Below, piece after piece: positions 2 through 46,993 of a stretch of 64,000 bases of DNA. Source of the DNA: a virus; the IMG/VR virus record IMGVR_UViG_3300044630_006584, one strand, 5' to 3'. The notes under the pieces were generated by a model. The model saw nothing but the letters and a program-made list of their open reading frames with translations. It made no database searches and was not told where the DNA came from. Every line of letters starts with the position of its first letter. The stretch's first letter is position 1. A program made the position numbers and the translations under genes.

Positions 2-727
2 AACTTAAATCCACAGGGTGCTAAATTCGTTGTGTCCACTAACACTGATATAGATTCCGACTACCTCCTGGAATTCAGCAGGGCTGATCTAGATACAGCT
101 GGATCAACTGGTGCAACGTCAGACTTCGTTAAGCATCCATTTTTCTCGTGGGGTGATAGTCTGAATTTAGATTCAATCGTTCCTTATGGGCCATATAAGA
201 TTGATTTTGGAGGTGGTGCTACAGGATACATGAGCATAAATGCTTCCAATCAGATTAAGTTTGAATCCCTGGCTAGCTCAATAACTCTAGCAAATCAAAA
301 TATGACGGCGGGCGGAAACGTTATACTCAATGCACCAGCGGGTAATTTATTATCTGCAGGAACTACTAATATTCTGATCACCCCATCATACGCTGACTTT
401 GGAAACGACCTTTCGGGAGGGATAAAATTTAATTTTAATTTTTATCCAAGCGTAGCAACGAACAATGGATATTTCAACATCACTAAAAATGCCGGAGATT
501 CTATCTCTACGCAACCTTATACACAGATACCTTTCCGTGTTACTAGGCTTTTTAACTACGATACCTCCCTGAATGCAACAGTTGGAGTTAATTTAGCTAA
601 GTTTTCTTCTGGGCAATCCGGTACCGTTTTGGAAATTAGAGCAAATGGTAAAGTTTATACGAAAAAAACTTCGGAAAAGTACTATAATAATACTAACAGT
701 CCAGTCTTTACTTGGACTACCCCTTAA
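2..727 (+). CDS. Virion/tail-associated protein, 5'-partial (frame is open from the window edge)
   Basis: No stop between position 2 and the listed GTG at 32; rich in S/T/G/N and beta-strand-like; lies next to fibre genes. Confidence 0.5.
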   Translation, partial: NLNPQGAKFVVSTNTDIDSDYLLEFSRADLDTAGSTGATSDFVKHPFFSWGDSLNLDSIVPYGPYKIDFGGGATGYMSINASNQIKFESLASSITLANQNMTAGGNVILNAPAGNLLSAGTTNILITPSYADFGNDLSGGIKFNFNFYPSVATNNGYFNITKNAGDSISTQPYTQIPFRVTRLFNYDTSLNATVGVNLAKFSSGQSGTVLEIRANGKVYTKKTSEKYYNNTNSPVFTWTTP

Positions 728-1286: not shown

Positions 1287-2969
1287 ATGATAGATTTAAG
1301 GCTTTTAAACATACAGGAAGGAGATTCTCAAGCAGACATTGCCAATAAGCTGAATTATAATTTTAATCAGATTATAAATGCTGGGGACGGAGCGTACGGG
1401 TCAGTTGGAATACCAGGAGCAGTTGGATCTTATGGTGCAACTGGTATCACAGGTCCTGCTGGATTCCAGGGACAAAGGGGTAATTTTTGGTTTGTTCAGG
1501 AAACTGGACCAACTGCTGGTGTAACCGGAGGTGATTATTGGGTTGATTTAGCTAGTGACTGCGAGGTTTTTGAATGGATAGAATCGGATGGCACATATAG
1601 CTGGGTCAGTCAGGGATTTTTACTGTCCCAGAGCGGTGTTTTTGAAATCGCAGCTTCTACTACAGGCCTTACATCAGGTTATCCCACACAGGCCTATGTG
1701 ATAGCTTTACCGTCGCCATTTGAAAAAACATTAGTTCTTTCAGGAGCTTCTGGTCCTAATGTTAAAAATCCACAGCTTTCTAAGGTAATGCTAGAAACAG
1801 GTGGAACAAGTGGATTTCCTCTTCTGGAGTTTTCCAAATATGATTACCAAAGCAATTCCCCTTTTAATTCTCTAACACCTAAAATAAAGTGGTACACTAC
1901 AAATACAGGTAGCTCCGATGCATATGGATTGAATTTTGAGGCAAGAGGTGGACTTGGATTTAATGTTGCAAACTTTAATGGCGTCGCATATAACGATGTC
2001 AGATTCACTGATGGAAGTATAGTATCTGGAATAACCGGAGCATTCTCTAGTGATCTTAACTATTATGCAGCAACTGGCGATTTTAGAATTGGCACCACGC
2101 TATCCATAAAGTCGGTAAATGCTGTGTGGAATAATGTTGGATTTACCGGACCCGTTTCTTTTTCAGCGACAACTGGGGTTGATAGAATAAATTCTGGTAG
2201 AAACACTCTAATGGTTCAGAATGGAATAACTTATAATAGGACTACCTCTTATACCACTGGTCAAAATCTATTAAGTGTCAAATACACTGGATCGTCTTCG
2301 TATTCTGAATATGGACCTTATCTAGCAAGTCCAAATAATTTTTATCTGGCTGATTCGGACGGTAACAATAAATTTGCTAAAAAAACTAGTGGCTATTTCC
2401 CAAATCCTAAAACTGCATCCGGTAGTAATAATACGAGTTTCTATGTCTGGAATGGAAAAATTACAGGATCACAGGACGTTTACACAGTGGGAGCAGCAAT
2501 AAGTACAACAACAAATTCTGATTTAATGCGTCACCAGATTGGTGAATTTTTTCATCCTGATATATCCGGAGCTTCAGTGGGGAACCAAGCACTTGCCATA
2601 TTTGTACCAAATCAAACCAGTAATAAAACTGGATATGGATATCTAGTTGACAATAACCAATCTATGACATTTAGAGTTAATACAACATCTAGTGGGTATG
2701 GATTTAACACTGTTATATTGGACTCAGCATCCAATAATCCCGCAGCATTTTTCAACTTCACTGCTTATTCTAACGTGAAAAATGCCGTTTTACTGGGCGA
2801 TCTTGTAACAGGCGGGGATGAAAACACATACGCGGACCAATTTGAATTTAGTATAGTTAAAATGGGGACCGAACTAAAAGTATACTTCAAAGCTTGGGGA
2901 GGGAATTTAAAAAATTACACTACCAACGACAGCGCTATTGTTTGCGGGTGTGTGTCCACAACTTCATAA
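1287..2969 (+). CDS. Tail fibre-like protein with short collagen-like (Gly-X-Y) segment
   Basis: GSVGIPGAVGSYGATGITGPAGFQGQRG repeat after an N-terminal GDSQADIANKLNYNFNQI motif; beta-rich C-terminus. Confidence 0.65.
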   Translation: MIDLRLLNIQEGDSQADIANKLNYNFNQIINAGDGAYGSVGIPGAVGSYGATGITGPAGFQGQRGNFWFVQETGPTAGVTGGDYWVDLASDCEVFEWIESDGTYSWVSQGFLLSQSGVFEIAASTTGLTSGYPTQAYVIALPSPFEKTLVLSGASGPNVKNPQLSKVMLETGGTSGFPLLEFSKYDYQSNSPFNSLTPKIKWYTTNTGSSDAYGLNFEARGGLGFNVANFNGVAYNDVRFTDGSIVSGITGAFSSDLNYYAATGDFRIGTTLSIKSVNAVWNNVGFTGPVSFSATTGVDRINSGRNTLMVQNGITYNRTTSYTTGQNLLSVKYTGSSSYSEYGPYLASPNNFYLADSDGNNKFAKKTSGYFPNPKTASGSNNTSFYVWNGKITGSQDVYTVGAAISTTTNSDLMRHQIGEFFHPDISGASVGNQALAIFVPNQTSNKTGYGYLVDNNQSMTFRVNTTSSGYGFNTVILDSASNNPAAFFNFTAYSNVKNAVLLGDLVTGGDENTYADQFEFSIVKMGTELKVYFKAWGGNLKNYTTNDSAIVCGCVSTTS

Positions 2970-2977
2970 AAAATAAA

Positions 2978-4702
2978 ATGAGATTTAGTAATAAGCAAAT
3001 ATTCACAGGAGACACTAAGGATCTCATAGTAGACAAGATAAACGAGAACTTTTCTCAGATTATTTCCTTTTCTACAGGACCACAAGGAAGATCTGGCTTA
3101 ATAGGTCCAACCGGATATCCGGGTGGAGCTGGTCAACTTGGTGCTACCGGTGTAAGTGGACAGAGAGCATCCGATTGGACTCTTAGTGTTATGCCACCTT
3201 CTAATCCTAATGAATATGACCAATGGATAGATCAGGGTGTAACCGGTAATGGTGACATCTATCAATATGATGGATCTAACTGGCAAAGTACAGGAATATC
3301 CTTAATAGAATCACAGTTCTTTAAAGTTAAAAATGATATCCCTACTTTTTCAGCCCCAACCGAATATTCGGCGATCTATTTTACAGATCCTGATCAGAAT
3401 ACAAAGTCTTTGGTTATTTCGGACGGCGAGAACTCATCTAGCTACATAAATCCTAACTATTCAAAGCTTTTGGTGAGTACGAATGATCAGGTAGCTACTC
3501 CTATTTTTTCTTTCCGCAAATCCAACAGCTCATCTACTTCACAGCCATCTTTTTACTGGGCTCAAACTGGGAATAATCCTAGGGTAAATTTCAATAGTAA
3601 TTATGATTTAAATATATTGTCTAATAGCGGATCTCTACTAATCTATCCGCAGTATTCAGGATACGCTAACATGTCTGCTCAGCGAGCATATTTTAATGCT
3701 TATAATGATATTACGATGTCATCTGTTACTTTCTCTTCTACCGGAAGTCTACAAATACAGACCAATAATTATCAGCTCACAAGCAGCCAATTAAATGCAT
3801 CAATGGAAACGTATGTGTACGGAGCTGTAAACATAGAGCCTGCAGCTTCTGTAGCGAGCAGAAAAGAGGGTGTAGTTATAAGCAGGGGAGCGACTTCTAG
3901 TAATGCGATATCTAGCTTCTATACAACACAATCTCAATCGGAGATTCAGAATCCGCCTTCTTCAGTATGGAGACAGGTTTTCAGTATTGAACAATCAACT
4001 GCTATACTGGATGAGGTCGATCCGATAACAGATGTTACATACAGGGATGTTAGATCCAGAGCAGTATTTGGAGCCACTGGTGATGGCTACACCTCTTATA
4101 ATATATGGACATCCGGTGTTCCAACAGGACCTACAGGACCTTTCTCCTATCATGTTGTAGGTAACACCTCGATTGCAGCTCAGTCTGGAATTTTTTATAT
4201 CTCGTCTAAAATAATACCAGCAAATTTAAGATATTTCGCTGACGTTTCTTCCGTTTCTAATTTCTATACTGATACCATAACTTTCACTTTACCTACTTCG
4301 TGGCTAGGTGGAAATTCGGTTTATGTAAAAATACCAAGGACTGTAACAAATCCGCAGCAGACTGAGGGATATCCCCTATACGGTGCATCCTATGTTAACG
4401 AATTCAGAATATTCCTTGACTATGGCAGTTTTACAAACGTTAACCGAAAGATAGTCGGTGTAGTATGGGATCAATTAACAAACATATCTGGAACGACACA
4501 GGCTACATATCAGCAGCAATTTGTTACTTTTGGAACACCCTGCTATTACTTTGATATAATGTATCATTATAACAATAACAATCAGGTTATGGCTTACGTG
4601 AAAACCTGCTCCGGACAAAGTTATCCTTTAAGAATAACAAACTACACATCAAAAGTTACGATTCTTTCTGGTGAACCAGCAGCTCTATTAAGCTTCCCTT
4701 AA
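2978..4702 (+). CDS. Tail fibre-like protein, paralogue of 1287..2969
   Basis: Probable start MRFSNKQIF at 2978; GDTKDLIVDKINENFSQI plus a Gly-X-Y run ending GQRA mirror the previous gene. Confidence 0.65.
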   Translation: MRFSNKQIFTGDTKDLIVDKINENFSQIISFSTGPQGRSGLIGPTGYPGGAGQLGATGVSGQRASDWTLSVMPPSNPNEYDQWIDQGVTGNGDIYQYDGSNWQSTGISLIESQFFKVKNDIPTFSAPTEYSAIYFTDPDQNTKSLVISDGENSSSYINPNYSKLLVSTNDQVATPIFSFRKSNSSSTSQPSFYWAQTGNNPRVNFNSNYDLNILSNSGSLLIYPQYSGYANMSAQRAYFNAYNDITMSSVTFSSTGSLQIQTNNYQLTSSQLNASMETYVYGAVNIEPAASVASRKEGVVISRGATSSNAISSFYTTQSQSEIQNPPSSVWRQVFSIEQSTAILDEVDPITDVTYRDVRSRAVFGATGDGYTSYNIWTSGVPTGPTGPFSYHVVGNTSIAAQSGIFYISSKIIPANLRYFADVSSVSNFYTDTITFTLPTSWLGGNSVYVKIPRTVTNPQQTEGYPLYGASYVNEFRIFLDYGSFTNVNRKIVGVVWDQLTNISGTTQATYQQQFVTFGTPCYYFDIMYHYNNNNQVMAYVKTCSGQSYPLRITNYTSKVTILSGEPAALLSFP

Positions 4703-22786: not shown

Positions 22787-24670
22787 ATGGGAAAAGTAAT
22801 TGGAATTGACTTGGGAACAACAAACTCTTGTGTTTCGGTCATAGAAGCAGATCAGCCAGTTGTTATTGTTAATGCCGAGGGAAAGAGAACAACTCCAAGC
22901 GTTATCGGATTCAACGATGGTGAAATTAAAATCGGGGATCCAGCTAGGAGACAAGCTGTGACAAACCCTACGAACACATTGTACTCTGTTAAGAGATTCA
23001 TTGGATCTAACTTTGACGATGTGAAGAAAGAGGCTAAGAAAATGCCTTATGTGGTTAAAAAGGGCAGCGATAATAGAGTTATCGTGGAAGCTAATGGAAG
23101 AGATTATATCCCACAGGAGATCGCAGCTATGGTTCTTCAGAATCTTAAAAGAGTTGCAGAGGATTACCTCGGAAGCGAAGTAACAGAAGCGGTTATCACT
23201 GTGCCTGCTTATTTTAATGACGCACAGAGGCAAGCAACAAAAGAGGCAGGTGAGATTGCTGGTCTTAATGTATTGAGAATTATCAACGAGCCAACGGCTG
23301 CAGCACTAGCTTATGGACTTGATAAAATGGACAAAGATCAAAAGGTAGCGGTATATGACCTCGGCGGTGGTACATTTGACGTATCCATCTTGGAAATAGG
23401 ATCTGGCGTATTTGAAGTTCTTTCAACTAACGGTGACACACATCTTGGTGGTGACAACTTCGATGAGAAGATCATTGATTGGATTGTGGAAGAGTTCAAG
23501 TCGCAAACTGGAATAGATGCCTCTAAGGACCCAATGGCTTATCAACGTATTAGAGAAGCTGCTGAGAAGGCTAAAATCGAATTATCAAATTCATCAGAAA
23601 CAGAAATTAACCTACCTTATCTAAGCGCTCTTTCAGATGGGCCTAAGCACTTTGTAGGTAAACTTTCGAGAGCTAAATTTGAGCAAATGATTGATGATTT
23701 AATTCAGAAGACACTTGCTCCCTGTAGAAAAGCTATCAAAGATTCCAAACTTAAAGTTTCTGAAATAGATGAGATTCTATTGGTTGGTGGATCAACAAGA
23801 ATTCCTAAGGTTCAAGAGGAAGTAGAAAAGCTATTTGGTAAAAAGCCAAATAAGAGCGTAAATCCCGATGAGGTTGTTGCTATTGGAGCGGCAGTTCAGG
23901 GAGCAGTTTTAAAAGGAGACATCACGGACGTTCTTTTGCTTGATGTTACACCGCTTTCTTTAGGTATTGAAACAATGGGAGGTGTATTCACCAAATTGAT
24001 TGAAGCTAACTCAACTATCCCTATTAGAAAAAGCGAGTCATTCTCTACTGCCGTTGATAACCAGGCAAATGTGGAAATCCATGTTTTACAGGGTGAAAGA
24101 CCAATGGCTTCAGATAACAAGACTCTGGGAAGATTCATGCTAACTGATGTTCCGCCTGCTCCAAGAGGGATTCCTCAGATTGAAGTTACCTTTGATATTG
24201 ATGCTAACGGTATCATTAGCGTTTCTGCTAAGGATAAAGGAACAGGTAAAGAGCAGAACATCAAGATTGAATCTGGTAACAAGCTGTCAGATGATGAAAT
24301 CAAGAAGATGAAGGATGACGCTTTATCTAATGAGAAAGCAGACAAGGAAAGACTTAAGTTATCCCAGGCTAAAAATGAGTTGGATGGCTTAATTTTCCAA
24401 GCTGAAAAAATGATTAAAGATTTTGAAGAAAAGACATCTGAGGAGGAAAGAGCTAAGATTAATTCTATGATCGAGTCCGCTAAGGAGACCGTAAAAGGTG
24501 AGGATGCTGAAAAGATGGAATCTAGCACCAAGGATCTAGTCGAGGCACTCCAAGAAATCTCCACTAAAGTTTATGCTCAAGAGCAAGCTAACTCCGGCGA
24601 AGCTGGTGAAACAACTAGCTCAACAAGCACAGAAGCTGAAGAGGTTGAATTTGAGGAGGTTAAGGGATAA
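22787..24670 (+). CDS. dnaK: Hsp70 chaperone DnaK
   Basis: [50 protein letters not shown]. Confidence 0.97.
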
Positions 24671-26400: not shown

Positions 26401-27819
26401 ATGATAGTAGATATAGAAAATAAAGGAACGTATCTGAACGTTTCTCATTTCAGTGACGAGGGCGATCTAGTTTTTTTGCACATTCCCGTTCCTGAGGAGG
26501 AGAGATTTGTTTGGTCAAAGTGCTATCCTAATGACAGAAAAAAAGACCCAGAATGGAAAGACTGGACGGGTGCACCAGTTAAAAAGGATCCTTCTGAGAG
26601 ATACGATAAGTATAGAATGGCTCAAATGCTGGAAGAGTCAGATCGCAGCATAACAGCACCACTTTGGGAGTATCAGACACCAAAGAAATACTTTCTCGAT
26701 ATCGAGGTTGAGATCACGGATGAGATGGCAGATGCGTTAGATACGGAGAACACAAAGAATAGAGTTTTATCAATCGGTATCGCAACAGACAAATGCAAGC
26801 TTATTGTTTTAGGTCTAGATCCTCTAACTCAAGAGCAACAGGTTTCCATTCATAATAAGCTGAATAGCTACTTCGAAAAAACCGGTGACGAGTGGAGCTT
26901 TAAATACAAGCAATTTGAAAGCGAGTATGATATGATGTATACTTTCTTTAAGGACATAGGATCGAAGATGCCATTCATTACAGGATGGAACTGGCTAGGG
27001 TATGACTGGCCGTATTTGATAAACCGTGCAAAGAAGCTGGGAATAGATCCCAAGATGATATCACCGTCACGTACTCTAATAGGAAAGAATCAGCTACCAC
27101 AACACATACTAATGGTCGATTACTTGGATATCTATAAAAAATGGGACCGTGTTATAAAGATCAAGGAAAGTAATAGGTTGGATTATGTTGCTGAAAAAGC
27201 TATAGGACTCAAGAAGATCTCATATAACGGAACTCTCCGTGATCTATATCAATCTAATTTTGAAGACTTTATCTACTATAACGCAGTCGATTGTGCTCTT
27301 GTTCATTATATAGATCAGAAGCTAAAGACCTTACAGACTTTCTTTAAGATAGCATTGGTAACAGGCGTAGAAATTAATAGAGCACTTTCCCCAGTTTGGT
27401 CAACAGAGAGCATGATGCTCAGAAAGTTCCTAGAAAGAAAACAGGTATTTGTTAACGAGAGGAAAGAAGAGCAGGCAGTTAAATTTGCAGGTGGATATGT
27501 TAAGGAGCCAATAGCGGGATTGCACGAATGGATAGCTTGTTATGACTTTGCCTCCCTGTACCCAAATACAATTGTTCAATGGGGTATATCCCCTGAAGTC
27601 TATAAAGGGAAGAGCATATTAACTCCAAAGGAAAGTTGGGTTAAAACATCATCTGGTGCGTACTTCGGAGGAGAAGACGAAGAGCCTATACTAAGAGGCA
27701 TAGTTAGCGATCTTTATGCAAAAAGAAGAGCTACAAAGAACAAAATGTTAGCTTTACAGATCGAAATCGATAGACTTGAAAAATTACTAAAAAAAGAATC
27801 AGAAAATTCCCCTAAATAG
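26401..27819 (+). CDS. gp43: Family B DNA polymerase, N-terminal half (3'-5' exonuclease + motif A)
   Basis: ExoI FLDIEV, ExoII TGWNWLGYDWPYL, ExoIII YNAVD, GGYVKEP, YDFASLYP; ends in the first fingers helix. Confidence 0.9.
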   Translation: MIVDIENKGTYLNVSHFSDEGDLVFLHIPVPEEERFVWSKCYPNDRKKDPEWKDWTGAPVKKDPSERYDKYRMAQMLEESDRSITAPLWEYQTPKKYFLDIEVEITDEMADALDTENTKNRVLSIGIATDKCKLIVLGLDPLTQEQQVSIHNKLNSYFEKTGDEWSFKYKQFESEYDMMYTFFKDIGSKMPFITGWNWLGYDWPYLINRAKKLGIDPKMISPSRTLIGKNQLPQHILMVDYLDIYKKWDRVIKIKESNRLDYVAEKAIGLKKISYNGTLRDLYQSNFEDFIYYNAVDCALVHYIDQKLKTLQTFFKIALVTGVEINRALSPVWSTESMMLRKFLERKQVFVNERKEEQAVKFAGGYVKEPIAGLHEWIACYDFASLYPNTIVQWGISPEVYKGKSILTPKESWVKTSSGAYFGGEDEEPILRGIVSDLYAKRRATKNKMLALQIEIDRLEKLLKKESENSPK

Positions 27820-35951: not shown

Positions 35952-37739
35952 ATGGCTACAAAACCGAGTAAAGAAATACAAGTCCTCAGCGACTTTGAAC
36001 ACATTTTGGCTAGACCTACCATATATGTTGGTAGCGTAAAAACTTCAGAAGAACAGGTACCTATAGTGGAAGAGAGCAAGTGCATCAAGTCACAGCCCAG
36101 ACCGATCTCCGTTGGTATGTATAAACTTTTCGATGAGGTTTTTTCTAATTGCGTCGATGAGGCCAAGAGGATGAAATCGCCGATGAAGAAAATCACGGTA
36201 GATATCGATTCCCGCTCTAATTCGATCTCCATTACTGATTCCGGTGACGGATTTCTCAATGGATCCAAAAAGAATAAAAAGAGCGGATTATCCAACGTTG
36301 AGACCGCAGTATCCATGCTAAGAGCTGGTTCCAATTTCGATAACGATGATATAGAGGAATCCCTAATTGGTACCAACGGGATGGGAGTTAGTCTTGTTAA
36401 CGCTTTGTCGTCATTCTTCGAGATAGAGACAACAAACAGTCAAGAAACATATTCCCAAAGATGGGAGAATTTCTTAGCATCTAAACCCGATGTAAAGGCG
36501 AAGTCTTCTGGTAGTGAAACAGGAACAAGGGTTAGCTTTTCTCCTCTACCTAAGATATTCGATAATAATAAATGGGACCGAGATATCCTATGGTCCACAC
36601 TGGTTCTGAAAAAGAGGGTATTGGAAACCGAAAAAAAGACCGAGAATATTAACATAGAGTTTATATGGGACGGTAAAAAGACCTCGATCAGCTCAACTCT
36701 ATCACCGGGATTTTCATACAAGTGTCAAATAGGTGAACTTCTAATATGGCCAAAGAGTGAATCCACTTCTTCCTTTGCTTTTGTGAACTCTGCAATATGC
36801 ACAGGTATTCACCAGAAGATAGTTATGGATAGGATCAATGGTGAGCTGGAGGATAGCCTAGGTCATCATTTCTATGACCATCTACTGATTCTTAATTTAT
36901 CCCCGGGGTTAGTAAGATTTGGCGACCAGAATAAAACTAAATTTGTAAGTAAAAGGGAAGAGGTAGAACCAACCATCGTTAGAAGTTTCGAAGCCGGTTT
37001 ACAAAAATTCTACAGAACAGAAACATTTAAATCGATAAAGAAATCTGTTGACGAGAGGAGAAAAGATGCGGAGATAAAGAAGATTAGAAAGGAAAAAAAG
37101 AATGTAAAGATAAAATTTTCGCATAAGTATTTTCCTCCAACAGCTTCTAAGGCAGAGAATCTATTTATAGTAGAGGGGCTAAGCGCTATGGGATCTCTTC
37201 TTCAGAAAAGAGATCCTAAGAAGGACGGTGTCTATGCATTAAAGGGAAAGATTAAAAATGCAAGATCTCTCGGTGACCTATCATCAAATAGAGAGATATT
37301 GGAGCTAATGCAAATATTAAATCTGGATCCGGAGGAAAAGAGCTTTGATGGACCTTTTAAAAACATAGTTATATCAACAGACCAGGATCCCGATGGATCC
37401 CATATTACCAGCTTGCTGGTTAATCTTTTCTATACCTGGTTTCCGTGGATAGTGGGACAGGGAAGGTTACATATATTGGAAACACCTCTAGTTAGCTCGG
37501 GTGATAGGGTTAAAAAATATTACTTCTCGCTAGATGAATTCAAGAGAGCATCTTCTTCTGATCTTAAGAATGTAAGGTACCTTAAAGGACTAGGATCTCT
37601 ATCTTTGGATGATTGGGATTTTGTTATGAGAAACAGAAGAATCCTGCAGATATCACCAGATCCAGAATCCAAGTCAAGCCTGGAAATGGCTTTTGGTAAA
37701 TCCTCTCAGGCAAGAAAAAATTGGTTATCTGGATTTTAA
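35952..37739 (+). CDS. Type IIA topoisomerase large subunit (GHKL ATPase + TOPRIM; gp39+gp60 / GyrB-like)
   Basis: EHILARPTIYVGS, LFDEVFSNCVDE, GSNFD, GTNGMGVSLVN, VEGLSA, LKGKIKN, TDQDPDGSHI, YLKGLGS. Confidence 0.92.
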   Translation: MATKPSKEIQVLSDFEHILARPTIYVGSVKTSEEQVPIVEESKCIKSQPRPISVGMYKLFDEVFSNCVDEAKRMKSPMKKITVDIDSRSNSISITDSGDGFLNGSKKNKKSGLSNVETAVSMLRAGSNFDNDDIEESLIGTNGMGVSLVNALSSFFEIETTNSQETYSQRWENFLASKPDVKAKSSGSETGTRVSFSPLPKIFDNNKWDRDILWSTLVLKKRVLETEKKTENINIEFIWDGKKTSISSTLSPGFSYKCQIGELLIWPKSESTSSFAFVNSAICTGIHQKIVMDRINGELEDSLGHHFYDHLLILNLSPGLVRFGDQNKTKFVSKREEVEPTIVRSFEAGLQKFYRTETFKSIKKSVDERRKDAEIKKIRKEKKNVKIKFSHKYFPPTASKAENLFIVEGLSAMGSLLQKRDPKKDGVYALKGKIKNARSLGDLSSNREILELMQILNLDPEEKSFDGPFKNIVISTDQDPDGSHITSLLVNLFYTWFPWIVGQGRLHILETPLVSSGDRVKKYYFSLDEFKRASSSDLKNVRYLKGLGSLSLDDWDFVMRNRRILQISPDPESKSSLEMAFGKSSQARKNWLSGF

Positions 37740-39337: not shown

Positions 39338-40390
39338 ATGGCAAAAGATTACTACTCAATACTAGGTATTGCCAGGAACGCATCGTCCGAAGATATTAAG
39401 AAAGCTTATAGAAAGCTAGCTATTAAATATCACCCGGATAAAAATAACGGAGACAAAGAGTCGGAAAGAAAATTCAGAGAGGTGAGTGAGGCATACGAAA
39501 CACTCTCGGATCAGGATAAAAAAAGAAAATATGATAATCCAGATCCATTCAGGAGCCAAGGGTGGAATCCGTTTCAGGGAACTGATCCATTTCAGGGAAA
39601 CGATTTCTATAGCTTTTTTGGAGGGAGAAACGGTGGCTTCTCACAAGATCCTTTGATTAATAAGGGTAGAAATGTTAACGTATCAATGGAAGTCACACTT
39701 GATGAAATATTAAGTGGTGCTACTAAGAGAGTAGCTATATGGAGAAAAGAAGGATGTTCGTATTGCTCGGGAACAGGATCTGCTTCAGGTAAGCTTGAAA
39801 CGTGTAACGAGTGCCACGGATCGGGTAAGATAAGACAGACCGTAAATACTGCATTCGGTACGGTTGCCCATGAATCTTTTTGTAATACGTGTCAGGGTTC
39901 TGGATCTAAAAGTACTGACCCGTGTAGGCATTGCAACGGATCGGGTACAGAAAGAATATTGGACGAGATAGACATAGCTATGCCAAGAGGCAGCGTTGGA
40001 GGTATGAGTTTTGTAGTTTCTGGGAAGGGTGACCATGCAAAATCACCCTGCAATCCGGGAGATCTTGTTGTGAATGTGAATGAGATAGCGCATCGATATT
40101 TTAAGAGGGATGGTATAAATCTAGTATGCGAGGAATCTATAAGCTATAAGGAAGCTTGCTTAGGAACAGATATAAATATACCAAACCTGAAAGGTGGTGA
40201 ATATAAGATCAAGGTTCCGGGAGGAACGAGTCCTGGTAAAATATTTAGACTACAGGGTAAAGGTATTCCGGAATTTAATGGATTTATAAACGGGGATATC
40301 CTCGTTAAGGTTAGCATTAAAGTACCTCAGTTCATATCTGACGAACAGAGAATAAAGTTGGAAGAATTGGATAAATCACTCTCTATATGA
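39338..40390 (+). CDS. dnaJ: Hsp40 chaperone DnaJ
   Basis: J-domain KYHPDKN, G/F region, four CxxCxGxG repeats, C-terminal domain. Confidence 0.95.
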   Translation: MAKDYYSILGIARNASSEDIKKAYRKLAIKYHPDKNNGDKESERKFREVSEAYETLSDQDKKRKYDNPDPFRSQGWNPFQGTDPFQGNDFYSFFGGRNGGFSQDPLINKGRNVNVSMEVTLDEILSGATKRVAIWRKEGCSYCSGTGSASGKLETCNECHGSGKIRQTVNTAFGTVAHESFCNTCQGSGSKSTDPCRHCNGSGTERILDEIDIAMPRGSVGGMSFVVSGKGDHAKSPCNPGDLVVNVNEIAHRYFKRDGINLVCEESISYKEACLGTDINIPNLKGGEYKIKVPGGTSPGKIFRLQGKGIPEFNGFINGDILVKVSIKVPQFISDEQRIKLEELDKSLSI

Positions 40391-42300: not shown

Positions 42301-42807
42301 TTGAATAAATTAAGCATCACAGATCAGATCAATACCCAATATAGGGATTATGCCCTATATGTTATACAGAGCAGGGGTATTCCAAATTTCTATGATTTCC
42401 TAACTCCGGTACAGAGATTAATCTTAGAAAACTCCCCATCCAGATACAATAAAACCGTTGGACTAGTAGGGGAGGTTATTAAAACCGGATTTTATCATCA
42501 TGGAGATTGCCTTGATGGCGACACCCTCATAAATCTAGCAGACGGAACATCTATAAAGATTAAAGAGTGGTATAAAAACAATCCAGAGGCTGACCTATTG
42601 GTAAGATCTTTCGATACAGATTCCGGTGAAGAAGTTATAGGATATGCGCATAGCCCTAGAATAGGCCAACTAAATAATGAATATCTAGAGATAGAATTAG
42701 AATCGGGCGAAATAATAAGATGCACAGATAATCATCCATTCTTAGTGGATGGTGAATGGATTAAAGCCGGTGATTTGGTGAAAGGGCACGACATAACAAA
42801 TTTATGA
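42301..42807 (+). CDS. Type IIA topoisomerase gp52/GyrA N-extein (69 aa) fused to the N-terminal split-intein fragment (99 aa)
   Basis: YALYVIQSRGIP...LTPVQR...YHHGD then CLDGDTLI (block A) and IRCTDNHPF (block B). Confidence 0.92.
   Translation: MNKLSITDQINTQYRDYALYVIQSRGIPNFYDFLTPVQRLILENSPSRYNKTVGLVGEVIKTGFYHHGDCLDGDTLINLADGTSIKIKEWYKNNPEADLLVRSFDTDSGEEVIGYAHSPRIGQLNNEYLEIELESGEIIRCTDNHPFLVDGEWIKAGDLVKGHDITNL
42508..42804 (+). other. Split intein N-fragment (IntN)
   Basis: Begins at Cys70 (CLDGDTLINLADG), has TxxH (CTDNH), and ends WIKAGDLVKGHDITNL-stop with no HN terminus. Confidence 0.92.
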
Positions 42808-42846
42808 TTTTTTCATACCATCATTGATATATAAAATAAAAAATCC

Positions 42847-43725
42847 ATGATGATAGAGAAATATTGCGAAAGGTGTGGCATTAAATACCAAACAGATAAA
42901 AAATCATTTTTTAAGTATTGTAGTACCTTATGTAGGTCTAGAGATAAATTCATAGCTATCAAGGATAAGCATGGAAATGAATTTAACGTGTGGAAAAATA
43001 ATTTCCAAAAATACCCTGATTTTTATCTTAGTCTGAGTAAGATCAATAATACAAGAAATAAATGTTTTATATGTGGCATTGAATATAATTCTTTTAGAAT
43101 GTGCTGTAGCAAAGAATGCTCAAGCATAATGAAAAAGCAAACTACTTTTAAAACTACAGGGGCTGAACATAATCTATCATCTGGTTCCAAATCTAGATCC
43201 AATATGGAAGAAAACCTCATCCAATTATACGGGGTCAGTAACGTATATCAAAGGCATGATGTTAAAGAAAAATTAAAAAATACTTGGTATTTGAAATATG
43301 GATATGACAACCCATCCAAATCTAAAAATGTAAAAGAGAAGAAAAGAAAGGAAGCAGAGAAGAATGGATTTTGGATTCCAAGGGAAGAATGGTCTGAAAG
43401 AAAAATCTATGAAGCTAATGTTCACGAGATTACTTGGTCGCAAATGAGAAATTTTGCAAAACTTAAATTCGGAAGTGATATATGGGATAGAATAAAGGAA
43501 TCAAGGGGGTTACCTCAGACAGAATGGCTAACAGTCGATCATAGATATTCTAGAAACCAGGGATTTTTGGAAAAGATGGATCCTAGTATAATTGGGCACA
43601 TCTGCAATATAGATATATTAACATTCAGCGAAAACCGAAATAAATGGTCGACGTCTAGTATAACAATCGGTGAATTAAAAGCAGAAATAGAAGAATTCAA
43701 TAAAAATATAAGAGATGCGGATTAA
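42847..43725 (+). mobile_element. Free-standing HNH-type homing endonuclease between the split-intein halves
   Basis: Two CxxC...CSxxC zinc ribbons, YGV.N/KYGYDN repeats, C-terminal VDHRYS...GHICN...ENRNK; GATATATA at 42826-42833. Confidence 0.7.
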
Positions 43726-43831
43726 ATCAATAAAAAAAATTATCTTGGATTCACCCAAGCCTTTTTATGATATAACAGTAGAAAAGTACTCCAATTTTTC
43801 AATTGGTAAATCAAACATAATATCCCATAAT
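43715..43831 (+). other. Split intein C-fragment (IntC, 39 aa)
   Basis: MRIKSIKKI...FYDITVEKYSNF...IISHN followed by Ser+1. Confidence 0.92.
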
Positions 43832-45022
43832 TCTTCTTTGGCCGGAGCAATATCAAAACTAGCAAGGCCATTCGGTTGCTCCTTCCAGATATTAGAAGGT
43901 GATGGATTTTTTGGATCGCCTGTTAACCCTTCGCCATCCGCTCCTAGGTACACCTCTGTTAGAATTAACAATAAGATAAAAGAGCTAATAGAAAAGCACT
44001 CCGATCTTAACGAGGCAAACGAAGAGGGATCTCACGATTGGATTCACGTGGAAATGCCTATAGGTCTTATGACCCATATGGTTGGTATTGCAGTTGGCTA
44101 TAGAACTAATATACTACCCAGAAAAATGGAGGATGTTATAGAGTACCTCTCGGGTCAGCCTAAATTATTGAAGCCGCATTTCCGAGATTTTTCAGGCAAA
44201 GTAACCAAGTATAATAATGAGGAGAACACATGGTTAATAGAGTCCGGTCTTGAGGTCAATGCCTCTAAGAAATCAATGAGAATATTCGATCTTCCGCCAG
44301 CTATCAGATACGATAGCTTTATGGTGAGGCTTGAATCAAAGCTTGATCTATTAGGATGTGAATACCGCATAGAAAATAAATCTCAGAGTAAGTGTGATCT
44401 TACAATTACATTCCGTGGAATTGACGACGATAAGTTCAAATACGTTTCCGATAATATTTCAAGGATTACAAAGATTATAATCAAGGAAGATATTGTTTTA
44501 GTCAAAGACGGGGGAGTAGCTGAATATGGATCAATAAAGGAATACCTGGATCAATTTAAGGTACATCTGGAAGAGGTAAGATTGAAAAGACTGAAAAAAG
44601 ATGCATTGAATCTTTTGTCTGATCTTGAGTTTCTAGAAGCAAAATTAAAGTTTCTAAATTTCATGATACAGAAGAAAAGAAGTAATTCAGAGATCTCCCA
44701 GTTCTTGTCAGTGTACAATTCAAGGATAACATCAAGATTACAGAGAATAGAAGCAGTTAAACTAAGCGTAGAAAGCATAGAAGAGACTAAGAGCGAGATC
44801 GAGCGTATTAAGAAGGCAACAACAGAGAATAAGAAAGCTGTTAAAGAACAGGAGACAAAATACAAAGAGGCAAAGAAGCTTTTAAAAAAGCTATCGAAAC
44901 CACTGGTTAGGACTAACTCACTATTCGAGCCCACCGAGATTGACGGGATAGAAATATTCCAGCCGGAAGAGGAATCAGAAGAAAAAGAGGGGGAAGATCA
45001 AGAATTAGACGAAAACATTTAA
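43715..45022 (+). CDS. IntC fused to the topoisomerase gp52/GyrA C-extein
   Basis: After HN: SSLAGAISKLA...GDGFFGS...APRYTS (active-site Tyr)...GIAVGYRTNILP. Confidence 0.92.
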   Translation: MRIKSIKKIILDSPKPFYDITVEKYSNFSIGKSNIISHNSSLAGAISKLARPFGCSFQILEGDGFFGSPVNPSPSAPRYTSVRINNKIKELIEKHSDLNEANEEGSHDWIHVEMPIGLMTHMVGIAVGYRTNILPRKMEDVIEYLSGQPKLLKPHFRDFSGKVTKYNNEENTWLIESGLEVNASKKSMRIFDLPPAIRYDSFMVRLESKLDLLGCEYRIENKSQSKCDLTITFRGIDDDKFKYVSDNISRITKIIIKEDIVLVKDGGVAEYGSIKEYLDQFKVHLEEVRLKRLKKDALNLLSDLEFLEAKLKFLNFMIQKKRSNSEISQFLSVYNSRITSRLQRIEAVKLSVESIEETKSEIERIKKATTENKKAVKEQETKYKEAKKLLKKLSKPLVRTNSLFEPTEIDGIEIFQPEEESEEKEGEDQELDENI

Positions 45023-45844: not shown

Positions 45845-46993
45845 ATGACAGAGACGGAAATCGAAGAGATAAAGAATAAGATAACGGAGCTTACGTCTTT
45901 AAAGAATGAGTTAAAGAATGAGGAGCAGGCTGTTAAGCTAACGATGAATTCCATCTACGGCGCGGTAGGAAATTCTTTCTTTGTTTGCTTTAATACCGAT
46001 GTTGCAGAGGCAGTTACCCTACAGGGTCAGGATATGATCAAGTTCTCTGAAAAGATTGTAAATAGATATTTTCAGGAACATTGGCATCTAGATACTGAGC
46101 TGCACGAGCAATTGGGGCTATCCCAAGTTAAGAGAGTCCACAAGCCACTGGTTATCTACTCTGACACTGACTCTAATTATGTTGCTTTTGAGGAAGTTGT
46201 AAACTCATGTGACTGGAAAGGAGATCCTAAAGATCTTATCCTACAGATAAACGAGAAAAGATTTAAGGGATATCTAAAAAACTGCTTCGAGATTTATTCA
46301 AAGAAATGGGGTACTGAAAATAAACAGGATTTCGAGTTGGAGACACTTGCTATAAATGGTATATTCCTAGGTAAGAAAAAGTATGTTACTAATCTTGTGT
46401 ACGAGGACGGAGTCCACATGGAGCCTTTATCCAGATTAAAGATAACTGGTGTTGAAATGATCAAAGGCGGAACACCCCCATTCGTTAGAGAGAAGCTAAG
46501 CTATCTTACAAAATTCATCTTCTCCAAAGGTAAAAAGTTCAGTATCAAAGAATTTGTACAAGAGCTTAAATCCATTAAAAAAGATTTTAAAGCTCAGGAG
46601 TCCCAGAATATCTCTGCAGCTATACAAATCAACAACTACGAGAAGTTTGTTTTGAATGACGTCTCAGCGCTAGAAGTTGGAAAGGGATGTCCCATCCATG
46701 TTAGAGCAAGTGCATATCACAATTATCTACTGAATAATTCAAAATTTAAGGACAAGTATGCTATGATTAGAAGTTCAGATAAAGTTAATTTCTTCTTTGT
46801 TAAAACCAAATCCGCAGCTGAAAATAATGTATTTGCATTTGTTCAAGGTAATTTCCCATACGAATTTGCACCGCAGATAGATTACGATCAGCAATTCACC
46901 AAGACTATTTTGGACCCAATCAACAGGTTCATTGAAGCTATGGGCCACAACCCTATAAGTCCAAATCTATTCATGATAAATCCTCTTTTTTAA
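45845..46993 (+). CDS. gp43: Family B DNA polymerase, C-terminal half (motifs B and C, palm, thumb)
   Basis: KLTMNSIYG, AVTLQGQ, YSDTDS, KKKY, ITGVEMIKGGTP. Confidence 0.92.
   Translation: MTETEIEEIKNKITELTSLKNELKNEEQAVKLTMNSIYGAVGNSFFVCFNTDVAEAVTLQGQDMIKFSEKIVNRYFQEHWHLDTELHEQLGLSQVKRVHKPLVIYSDTDSNYVAFEEVVNSCDWKGDPKDLILQINEKRFKGYLKNCFEIYSKKWGTENKQDFELETLAINGIFLGKKKYVTNLVYEDGVHMEPLSRLKITGVEMIKGGTPPFVREKLSYLTKFIFSKGKKFSIKEFVQELKSIKKDFKAQESQNISAAIQINNYEKFVLNDVSALEVGKGCPIHVRASAYHNYLLNNSKFKDKYAMIRSSDKVNFFFVKTKSAAENNVFAFVQGNFPYEFAPQIDYDQQFTKTILDPINRFIEAMGHNPISPNLFMINPLF

Follow-up and report, generated by a model that had tools for sequence, protein, structure and literature searches.

Genes of uncultured phages that are fractured by split inteins were catalogued by Dassa, London, Stoddard, Schueler-Furman and Pietrokovski, who listed gp41, IMPDH, DnaE, NrdA, NrdJ, ligase and terminase as hosts, in a series that includes gp41-1 to -9, NrdJ-1/2, NrdA-1 to -7 and IMPDH-1, and no topoisomerase (Dassa et al. 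2009; PMC2677866). In their layout, a gene for the N-terminal part of the host protein (N-extein) and the N-terminal half of an intein (IntN) is followed on the same strand by a free-standing homing endonuclease gene, and then by a gene for the C-terminal intein half (IntC) and the rest of the host protein (C-extein). The endonucleases were only of the GIY-YIG or Vsr-like types, and HNH types were predicted to be able to fracture genes in the same way (PMC2677866). Genes of T-even phages have also been split by homing endonuclease genes, T4 gene 39/60 by mobA and Aeh1 nrdA by mobE; mobE is controlled by a late promoter together with a hairpin that sequesters its ribosome-binding site (PMC3045599, PMC2677866). 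Here, we analysed a 64,000-nt stretch of DNA from an uncultured T4-like phage, IMG/VR record IMGVR_UViG_3300044630_006584 ('the window'), in which a gene for a gp52/GyrA-like subunit of topoisomerase II is interrupted. Sequence analysis supports reading the locus as a gp52/GyrA gene that is fractured by a class-1 intein (Cys1, Ser+1), naturally split, and that is accompanied by an endonuclease gene standing free between the halves, and we consider it very likely that gene fracture, trans-splicing and homing together explain it, with the splicing chemistry, nuclease target and regulation as predicted parts of that explanation. Its support comes from features that can be read off directly: the anatomy of the locus, the family membership of its products, selection on the intein halves, an empty allele and a conversion tract.

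Three open reading frames (ORFs), all on the + strand, make up the locus. ORF1 (42301-42807; 168 amino acids (aa), TTG start) encodes an N-extein of 69 aa (42301..42507; residues 1-69), the first part of the gp52/GyrA-like subunit, with YHHGD at its C-terminal end. It continues into a 99-aa IntN (residues 70-168; 42508..42807 with its TGA stop) that has Cys1, the block A sequence CLDGDTLI and the block B sequence CTDNHPF, including its Thr and His, and that ends in TNL. ORF2 (42847..43725; 292 aa) is the free-standing homing endonuclease gene, as judged from matches to homing endonuclease families of PHROG. ORF3 (43715-45022; 435 aa) starts with a 39-aa IntC (43715..43831; residues 1-39), which begins with MRIKSIKKI and carries FYDITVE as block F and IISHN as block G. 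The remaining 396 aa of ORF3 are the C-extein of gp52 (43832..45022; residues 40-435; SSLAGAISKLA...SAPRY(79)TS), whose first residue, S40, is Ser+1. The ATG of IntC lies 11 nt inside the 3′ end of ORF2, and the entire cassette of IntN, endonuclease and IntC occupies 42508..43831 (1,324 bp). An earlier sequence-only reading had described the same three genes and motifs, and every one of them lies on the + strand where that reading placed it. The hosts that it named as fractured (gp41, NrdJ/NrdA, IMPDH and DnaE) are all on the list of Dassa et al. 2009.

Profile searches assign both ends of the fractured gene to one topoisomerase subunit. DNA_topoisoIV (Pfam PF00521) aligns at profile positions 1-63 with ORF1 and at positions 50-428 with ORF3, with scores of 93.6 bits for ORF3 and, below threshold when taken by itself, 25.6 bits for the 69-aa part of ORF1. 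PHROG 551 (DNA topoisomerase II) matches ORF1 and ORF3 alike, and there is a match to the structure of T4 gp52 (8YLU; E 2e-6). Together with the DNA_topoisoIV domain, a catalytic Tyr within an RY[TS] motif (ORF3 residue 79; 43949-43951) identifies the product as a type IIA topoisomerase A subunit. The window also encodes a GyrB-like large subunit of topoisomerase II, the gp39/gp60 equivalent, as an uninterrupted 595-aa ORF at 35952..37739 on the + strand, with a Pfam Toprim match and a sub-threshold match to HATPase_c (23.7 bits, cut-off 26.4); its synteny is the same in sister loci.

To place the insertion, we aligned the exteins to Escherichia coli GyrA with HMMER, using native numbering for GyrA. 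The N-extein aligns with residues 11-82, with ...HHGD on ...HPHGD(82), and the C-extein aligns with residues 83-192, with ORF3 S40 on S83 and SAPRY(79)TS on AAMRY(122)TE. By this alignment, the insertion point is between the Asp and Ser of YHHGD/SS (the slash marks the junction), which corresponds to E. coli GyrA D82/S83 and is 39 residues upstream of the catalytic Tyr (ORF3 Y79, GyrA Y122). The +1 nucleophile is thereby equivalent to GyrA S83, the serine known from quinolone resistance. Mycobacterial GyrA inteins are positioned directly after the catalytic Tyr, so the two sites are distinct. The alignment of the NCBIfam model NF038098 (GyrA_w_intein) is consistent with this: it is unbroken over the D82/S83-equivalent site and its match ends at the Tyr, as expected from the sequence-only reading, which had assigned the mycobacterial inteins to a different site. 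Mycobacterial GyrA inteins (e.g. Mxe GyrA) are like the intein described here in that they are inserted in the DNA-cleavage core of a type IIA topoisomerase A subunit, but they are contiguous, whereas the window's intein is split. The fractured-gene layout itself is already known (Dassa et al. 2009); for gp52/GyrA as its host gene, and for this site, we found no report. Full-text literature searches (InBase being outside their scope) did not turn up any split intein described in gp52, GyrA or a topoisomerase, or at the D82/S83 site, and none is mentioned among the 34 inteins surveyed by Pinto et al. The sequence-only reading had likewise known of no split intein at this topoisomerase site.

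An uninterrupted allele of the gene exists in nearly identical genomes. Joining residues 1-69 of ORF1 to residues 40-435 of ORF3 gives a protein of 465 aa that is identical, letter for letter (100%), to P0165, a contiguous 465-aa gp52 that belongs to a 104-member cluster and that came from a search for longer relatives. P0165 is encoded on seven contigs, one of them 173 kb long, with the gene order of the window: Toprim subunit, UvdE, DnaJ, gp52, a 260-aa ORF and the C-terminal half of DNA polymerase. Three intein-less sister loci (L083-L085) share 96.5-98% DNA identity with the window over 13 kb (megablast). The alignment to the sisters, which lack the whole cassette, breaks at window position 42507 and restarts at 43841, and the exact junction was set by codon-level comparison. 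Hence, the insertion is precise and in frame, since the joined exteins equal the uninterrupted homologue, and the intact subunit with its catalytic Tyr that the sequence-only reading expected to be rebuilt is the gp52 of the sister phages. We conclude from this comparison that strains of a single phage species differ by a clean indel of the cassette.

The empty allele bears on the possibility that gp52 is a dead pseudogene, broken by a selfish insertion in a phage whose topoisomerase has been lost or is supplied by the host. Decayed endonucleases in some relatives speak for such a history. However, the two exteins are unbroken, with the same protein sequence as the contiguous gene of the sister phages, and the layout is found with open reading frames in dozens of diverged lineages. 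Moreover, loss of the endonuclease has not released the intein halves from purifying selection (see below), and neither frameshifts nor relaxed selection (omega, the ratio of nonsynonymous to synonymous substitution rates, near 1) were seen in the exteins or intein halves. We regard a dead gp52 gene as very unlikely.

Nucleotide differences between the window and one of the sisters (L084) are concentrated around the junction. There are 17 differences in the 1,398-nt gene, all of them silent, and 16 of the 17 fall in the interval from -70 to +24 nt around the junction (binomial p ~3e-18). Among these is an AGC-to-TCT switch in the Ser+1 codon. These ~94 nt of silent differences around the junction mark a gene-conversion tract, as left by a donor of diverged sequence. 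Among the intein-bearing loci compared, none could serve as a close donor of the junction flanks; they share with the window 5-10 of the 16 diagnostic sites. The same pattern of differences around the junction recurs in a second, shorter contig (L002). Taken together, the sequence comparisons support recent mobility of the locus. As a separate observation on L002, positions ~1150-1234, at the end of this 1.2-kb ENA contig, are the reverse complement of the sequence that should follow within the gene; this end is a foldback assembly artefact that cuts the called gp52 to 174 aa.

Both intein halves are recognised by curated NCBIfam models, as the sequence-only reading had proposed to check: ORF1 residues 70-149 match intein_Nterm (TIGR01445) over model positions 1-83 of 83 with 49.5 bits (cut-off 24.5), and ORF3 residues 17-40 match intein_Cterm (TIGR01443) with 21.1 bits (cut-off 15.6). 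In an alignment of 31 N-extein+IntN proteins with identity down to 39%, YHHGD, C70, T142 and H145 never vary. In each of the 18 split loci examined, IntC is 39-41 aa long, starts with M[KRS][IV]K and ends with HN, and S[SA] follows. As in the fractured genes of Dassa et al., the intein is split at the canonical site, its halves are oppositely charged (net charge -12 for IntN and +4 for IntC), and the hosts are T4-like phages. An acidic IntN and a basic IntC are also the polarity of NrdJ-1, IMPDH-1 and NrdA-2 (Dassa et al., PMC2677866). By sequence profile, the nearest solved inteins are NrdJ-1 (E 6e-8) and then a DnaE intein chimera (4kl6; E 5e-7). NrdJ-1 (PDB 8UBS) and the DnaE inteins (Npu, Ssp) share with the window's intein class-1 chemistry, Cys1 and a split into ~100 + ~39 residues at the same loop. 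The +1 residue of DnaE inteins is Cys, in contrast to the Ser of the window. The intein halves of cyanobacterial DnaE are encoded at separate loci (PMC2677866).

The fold was modelled with AlphaFold2 (AF2) on a relative, L021, that carries one contiguous 144-aa mini-intein at the same site within a 589-aa gp52; the window's IntN and IntC were included in the alignment. The model is of high predicted quality (pLDDT 88.6, pTM 0.82) and has 65 matches in the PDB at E 0.001 or below, those listed being inteins or intein-like HINT domains (BIL). The best match is the Ssp DnaB mini-intein (1mi8; E 6e-11, TM-score 0.80/0.88, root-mean-square deviation 2.0), and Npu DnaE, NrdJ-1 and gp41-1 are matched as well, with 15-24% identity to the solved inteins listed. 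A HINT fold is therefore predicted for the homologue L021, rather than for the window's own two chains.

To assess selection, we compared the window with L003, a split locus from which the endonuclease has been lost. The proportions of nonsynonymous and synonymous differences (pN/pS) are 0.071/0.738 for IntN and 0.032/0.446 for IntC, giving omega values of ~0.02 and ~0.05, respectively. By this measure, both intein halves are under strong purifying selection, even without an endonuclease, which argues for splicing and against decay.

These residues and omega values also bear on an alternative in which the intein halves no longer splice, and act only as non-covalent interaction tags that hold two gp52 fragments together. 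Such a role has been proposed for the tails of phage Aeh1 NrdA-a/NrdA-b and of T4 gp39/gp60, and phage genes that are split by homing endonuclease genes and work without protein splicing are documented (PMC3045599). T4 39/60 and Aeh1 nrdA resemble the window's locus in that a free-standing endonuclease splits an essential gene of DNA metabolism, which in T4 is also a topoisomerase II gene; they differ in having no intein halves and no protein splicing, their fragments assembling non-covalently. In the gp52 family, every catalytic position (Cys1, Thr and His of block B, the His-Asn at the end of IntC, and Ser+1) is conserved down to 39% identity, and omega on the intein halves is 0.02-0.05, neither of which favours a mere tag. 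Furthermore, ~138 intein residues retained beside the catalytic Tyr, at the GyrA S83 equivalent, would probably hinder the enzyme. We consider it unlikely that the intein halves of the window serve as tags only, and favour trans-splicing.

The fractured gp52 layout is common in metagenomes. Clustering at 90% identity gave ~76 groups of N-extein+IntN proteins that are close to full length (168-192 aa); they come from JGI, ENA, Logan and NCBI assemblies, and their contigs reach 293 kb. A survey of the best 80 IMG/VR loci comprised 55 with an uninterrupted gp52, in which YHHGD is followed mostly by SS, 22 split loci, one contiguous intein and two loci ended by contig edges. Relatives of the window thus show an empty site, a contiguous mini-intein, a split intein with endonuclease, and a split intein with a decayed endonuclease. 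Two split loci lack an endonuclease: in L003, a gap of 121 nt still contains the 5′ leader of the endonuclease gene, which now runs directly into the final 33 codons of that gene, and in L007 there are frameshifted endonuclease remnants. One equivalent variant without an endonuclease gene occurs among the genes of Dassa et al. (gp41-7). In a third locus, L008, the endonuclease is broken in two.

Contiguous mini-inteins at the same site exist in L021 and in P0164, a second contiguous form (621 aa) from within the window's own clade, and this lends some colour to the idea that a contiguous intein, perhaps with an internal endonuclease domain, was misassembled as three ORFs. However, independent JGI, ENA, Logan and NCBI assemblies have the three-ORF layout at 39-98% identity, with the same position of the IntN stop, a 5′ hairpin belonging to the endonuclease itself, and an IntC ATG that overlaps the endonuclease stop. 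The sequence-only reading had raised an assembly error as one outcome that would overturn it; given this recurrence, we find such an error hardly credible, and treat the gene as genuinely fractured.

Among these relatives, the cassette and its host gene have separate histories. In IMG/VR, the gp52 most closely related to the window's (L015; 94-96% aa identity) is intein-less. L003, the nearest intein-bearing locus, is 85% identical to the window in IntN and 92% identical in IntC, but only 64% identical in the C-extein. We conclude from these identities that the history of the element disagrees with host-gene relatedness. Another locus (L024, 4989-7738) is a mosaic, with an IntC that is 85% identical to the window's, an IntN that is only 48% identical and an endonuclease that is ~40% identical, which implies recombination within the cassette. 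A blastn search of the locus against 50,697 phage records gave no match, and the nearest virus record (G001) is without gp52.

ORF2 has ~38 close relatives (54-99% identity). Its AF2 model (pLDDT 89.3, pTM 0.49) and alignment divide it into three parts: two Cys4 zinc ribbons, a helical region that matches Pfam DUF7487 (27.5 bits, cut-off 27), and a C-terminal domain in which D231, H232, N254 and N263 are invariant across 26 homologues. The protein matches PHROG homing-endonuclease families 3339 and 12131. The best structural matches of the C-terminal domain (VIA-align) are to nucleases of the HNH type, namely Gme HNH (Z 4.5, 68 residues aligned), the C-terminus of BrxU, Vibrio endonuclease I and Cas9 HNH domains, and a language-model search places this domain nearest to viral Atlas clusters that bear the name HNH (score 0.90-0.92). 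When the C-terminal domains of nine endonucleases were scanned against Pfam in isolation, no credible HNH match emerged, nor did Foldseek with the whole ORF2 model find any match at E 0.001 or below. The nuclease domain is probably HNH-like. In this respect, the locus would differ from those of Dassa et al. (GIY-YIG or Vsr-like endonucleases), as it does in its gp52/GyrA-like host gene and insertion site, which are not on their list.

A clade of huge phages (including LR756500.1) has an intein at the same site, and its endonuclease has the DUF7487 region in common with ORF2. The C-termini of two of these endonucleases (L011 and L016) match DUF559 (Vsr-like) weakly, at E 0.007-0.027, below the Pfam cut-off. 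This suggests a swap of nuclease domains on a common DNA-binding region between ORF2 and the huge-phage endonucleases.

A hairpin and a late-promoter-like element precede the endonuclease gene, as in the loci of Dassa et al. (cf. their Figure 4). In a predicted 54-nt RNA hairpin (42809-42861, + strand), the endonuclease ATG and first codons are paired with an upstream U-rich arm. Its folding z score is -2.95 in the window, and -6.5, -5.7 and -8.4 in three homologous loci (L004, L005 and L024, respectively), so that the hairpin is conserved and significant in 4/4 window-clade loci folded. Significance is confined to the tightly bounded 54-nt hairpin; a wider 91-nt fold around the endonuclease start is not significant (z -0.4). 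The hairpin loop contains an A/T-rich late-promoter-like box (42826-42839), and in L005 the loop has an exact TATAAATA. Generic scans for sigma-70 promoters and terminators were at chance level. By analogy with mobE and the loci of Dassa et al. 2009, we infer that the hairpin and late promoter may control the endonuclease. Given the 11-nt overlap, ORF2 and ORF3 are possibly coupled in translation.

We propose the following mechanism. The cassette, in frame within the gp52/GyrA-like gene, would cause the subunit to be made as two polypeptides. The acidic IntN and the basic IntC would associate into a HINT domain and undergo trans-splicing: a thioester would form at Cys1 and be transferred to Ser+1, Asn39 would cyclise, and an O-to-N shift would follow, leaving a scarless subunit of 465 aa that would partner the intact GyrB-like subunit. 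Most likely, the endonuclease cuts intein-less gp52 alleles near the site, and repair copies the cassette in; the conversion tract at the junction, and a patchy distribution at odds with the relatedness of the host genes, lend such cutting indirect support. In read-through transcripts, the hairpin would hide the endonuclease start codon and keep the endonuclease silent, and late transcripts starting at the loop box would free the start codon late in infection. The intein models, the HINT fold of the homologue, purifying selection and the intein-less sister allele all agree with the fractured split-intein gp52/GyrA gene first put forward from the sequence-only reading.

Some of the data count against this proposal, or parts of it. 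The conversion tract by itself is compatible both with a gain of the cassette in the window lineage and with a precise loss in the sisters. The fold was modelled on L021, which is 49-56% identical to the window's two intein halves. For ORF2, the structural matches of the nuclease domain are weak, all at Z 4.5 or less and none at Z 5, and Pfam HNH models do not match that domain even at E up to 5. The window's own late-promoter-like box agrees with TATAAATA at no more than 6 of 8 positions, and over the window as a whole TATAAATA shows no enrichment, with 6 occurrences versus 8.3 expected.

If the proposal is correct, the DNA-cleaving subunit of topoisomerase II, interrupted at the equivalent of the quinolone-resistance serine of gyrase, joins the short list of genes fractured by split inteins, and it would do so with an HNH-like endonuclease, a combination that was predicted, not observed, by Dassa et al. 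2009. The locus would be an unusually clean natural record of homing, in which the empty allele equals the predicted spliced product and a silent tract of ~94 nt surrounds the junction, and to which relatives add stages of endonuclease decay with the intein still under selection. For protein engineering, the family supplies many natural candidate variants of a Cys1/Ser+1 split intein. The gp52 HHGD/S inteins may form a large natural allelic series (39-98% identity; contiguous, split, and without an endonuclease gene) whose halves recombine in nature; should diverged halves cross-splice while remaining orthogonal to gp41-1, NrdJ-1 and DnaE, they would constitute a new Cys1/Ser+1 trans-splicing tool with natural variants, and the family would also serve as a field system for dating homing, with an otherwise near-identical intein-less sister genome as the reference, prospects that we raise tentatively and do not count as likely.

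Other candidate inteins were seen in related phages. In the 462-kb huge phage LR756500.1 (L001, 3144-4989; the contig is also L065), the gene directly upstream of gp52 opens with an IntC-like leader, ...ISHN/SALSAV, and its 5′ neighbour encodes an endonuclease of 373 aa that is similar to ORF2 at the C-terminus. This gene also looks fractured, and probably encodes a GyrB-like topoisomerase subunit. In L023, a 595-aa ORF upstream of the fractured gp52 (413-2200) has an intein-like match to the window's IntN at residues 426-515, and is followed by another endonuclease-like ORF (2245-3387). Genes annotated as 'uvsW_1' or ATP-dependent DNA helicase in Salmonella phages S16, STP4-a, STML-198 and relatives (H21-H28) match the window's IntN at 31% identity, and PHROG 16259 (DNA helicase) matches ORF1 residues 110-166. 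These matches suggest that UvsW of S16-like phages carries an intein, which may be split.

Another gene of the window is divided as well: the family-B (gp43-like) DNA polymerase is encoded by two genes ~18 kb apart, one (26401-27819) with the exonuclease domain and positions 16-140 of the Pfam DNA_pol_B profile, and one (45845-46993) with profile positions 133-451. There are no intein motifs at this break, and the same 382-aa C-terminal gene is present in the sister genomes. The window also encodes a full-length Hsp70/DnaK at 22787-24670 (Pfam, 853 bits) and, by synteny with L083, a DnaJ-type co-chaperone at 39338-40390.

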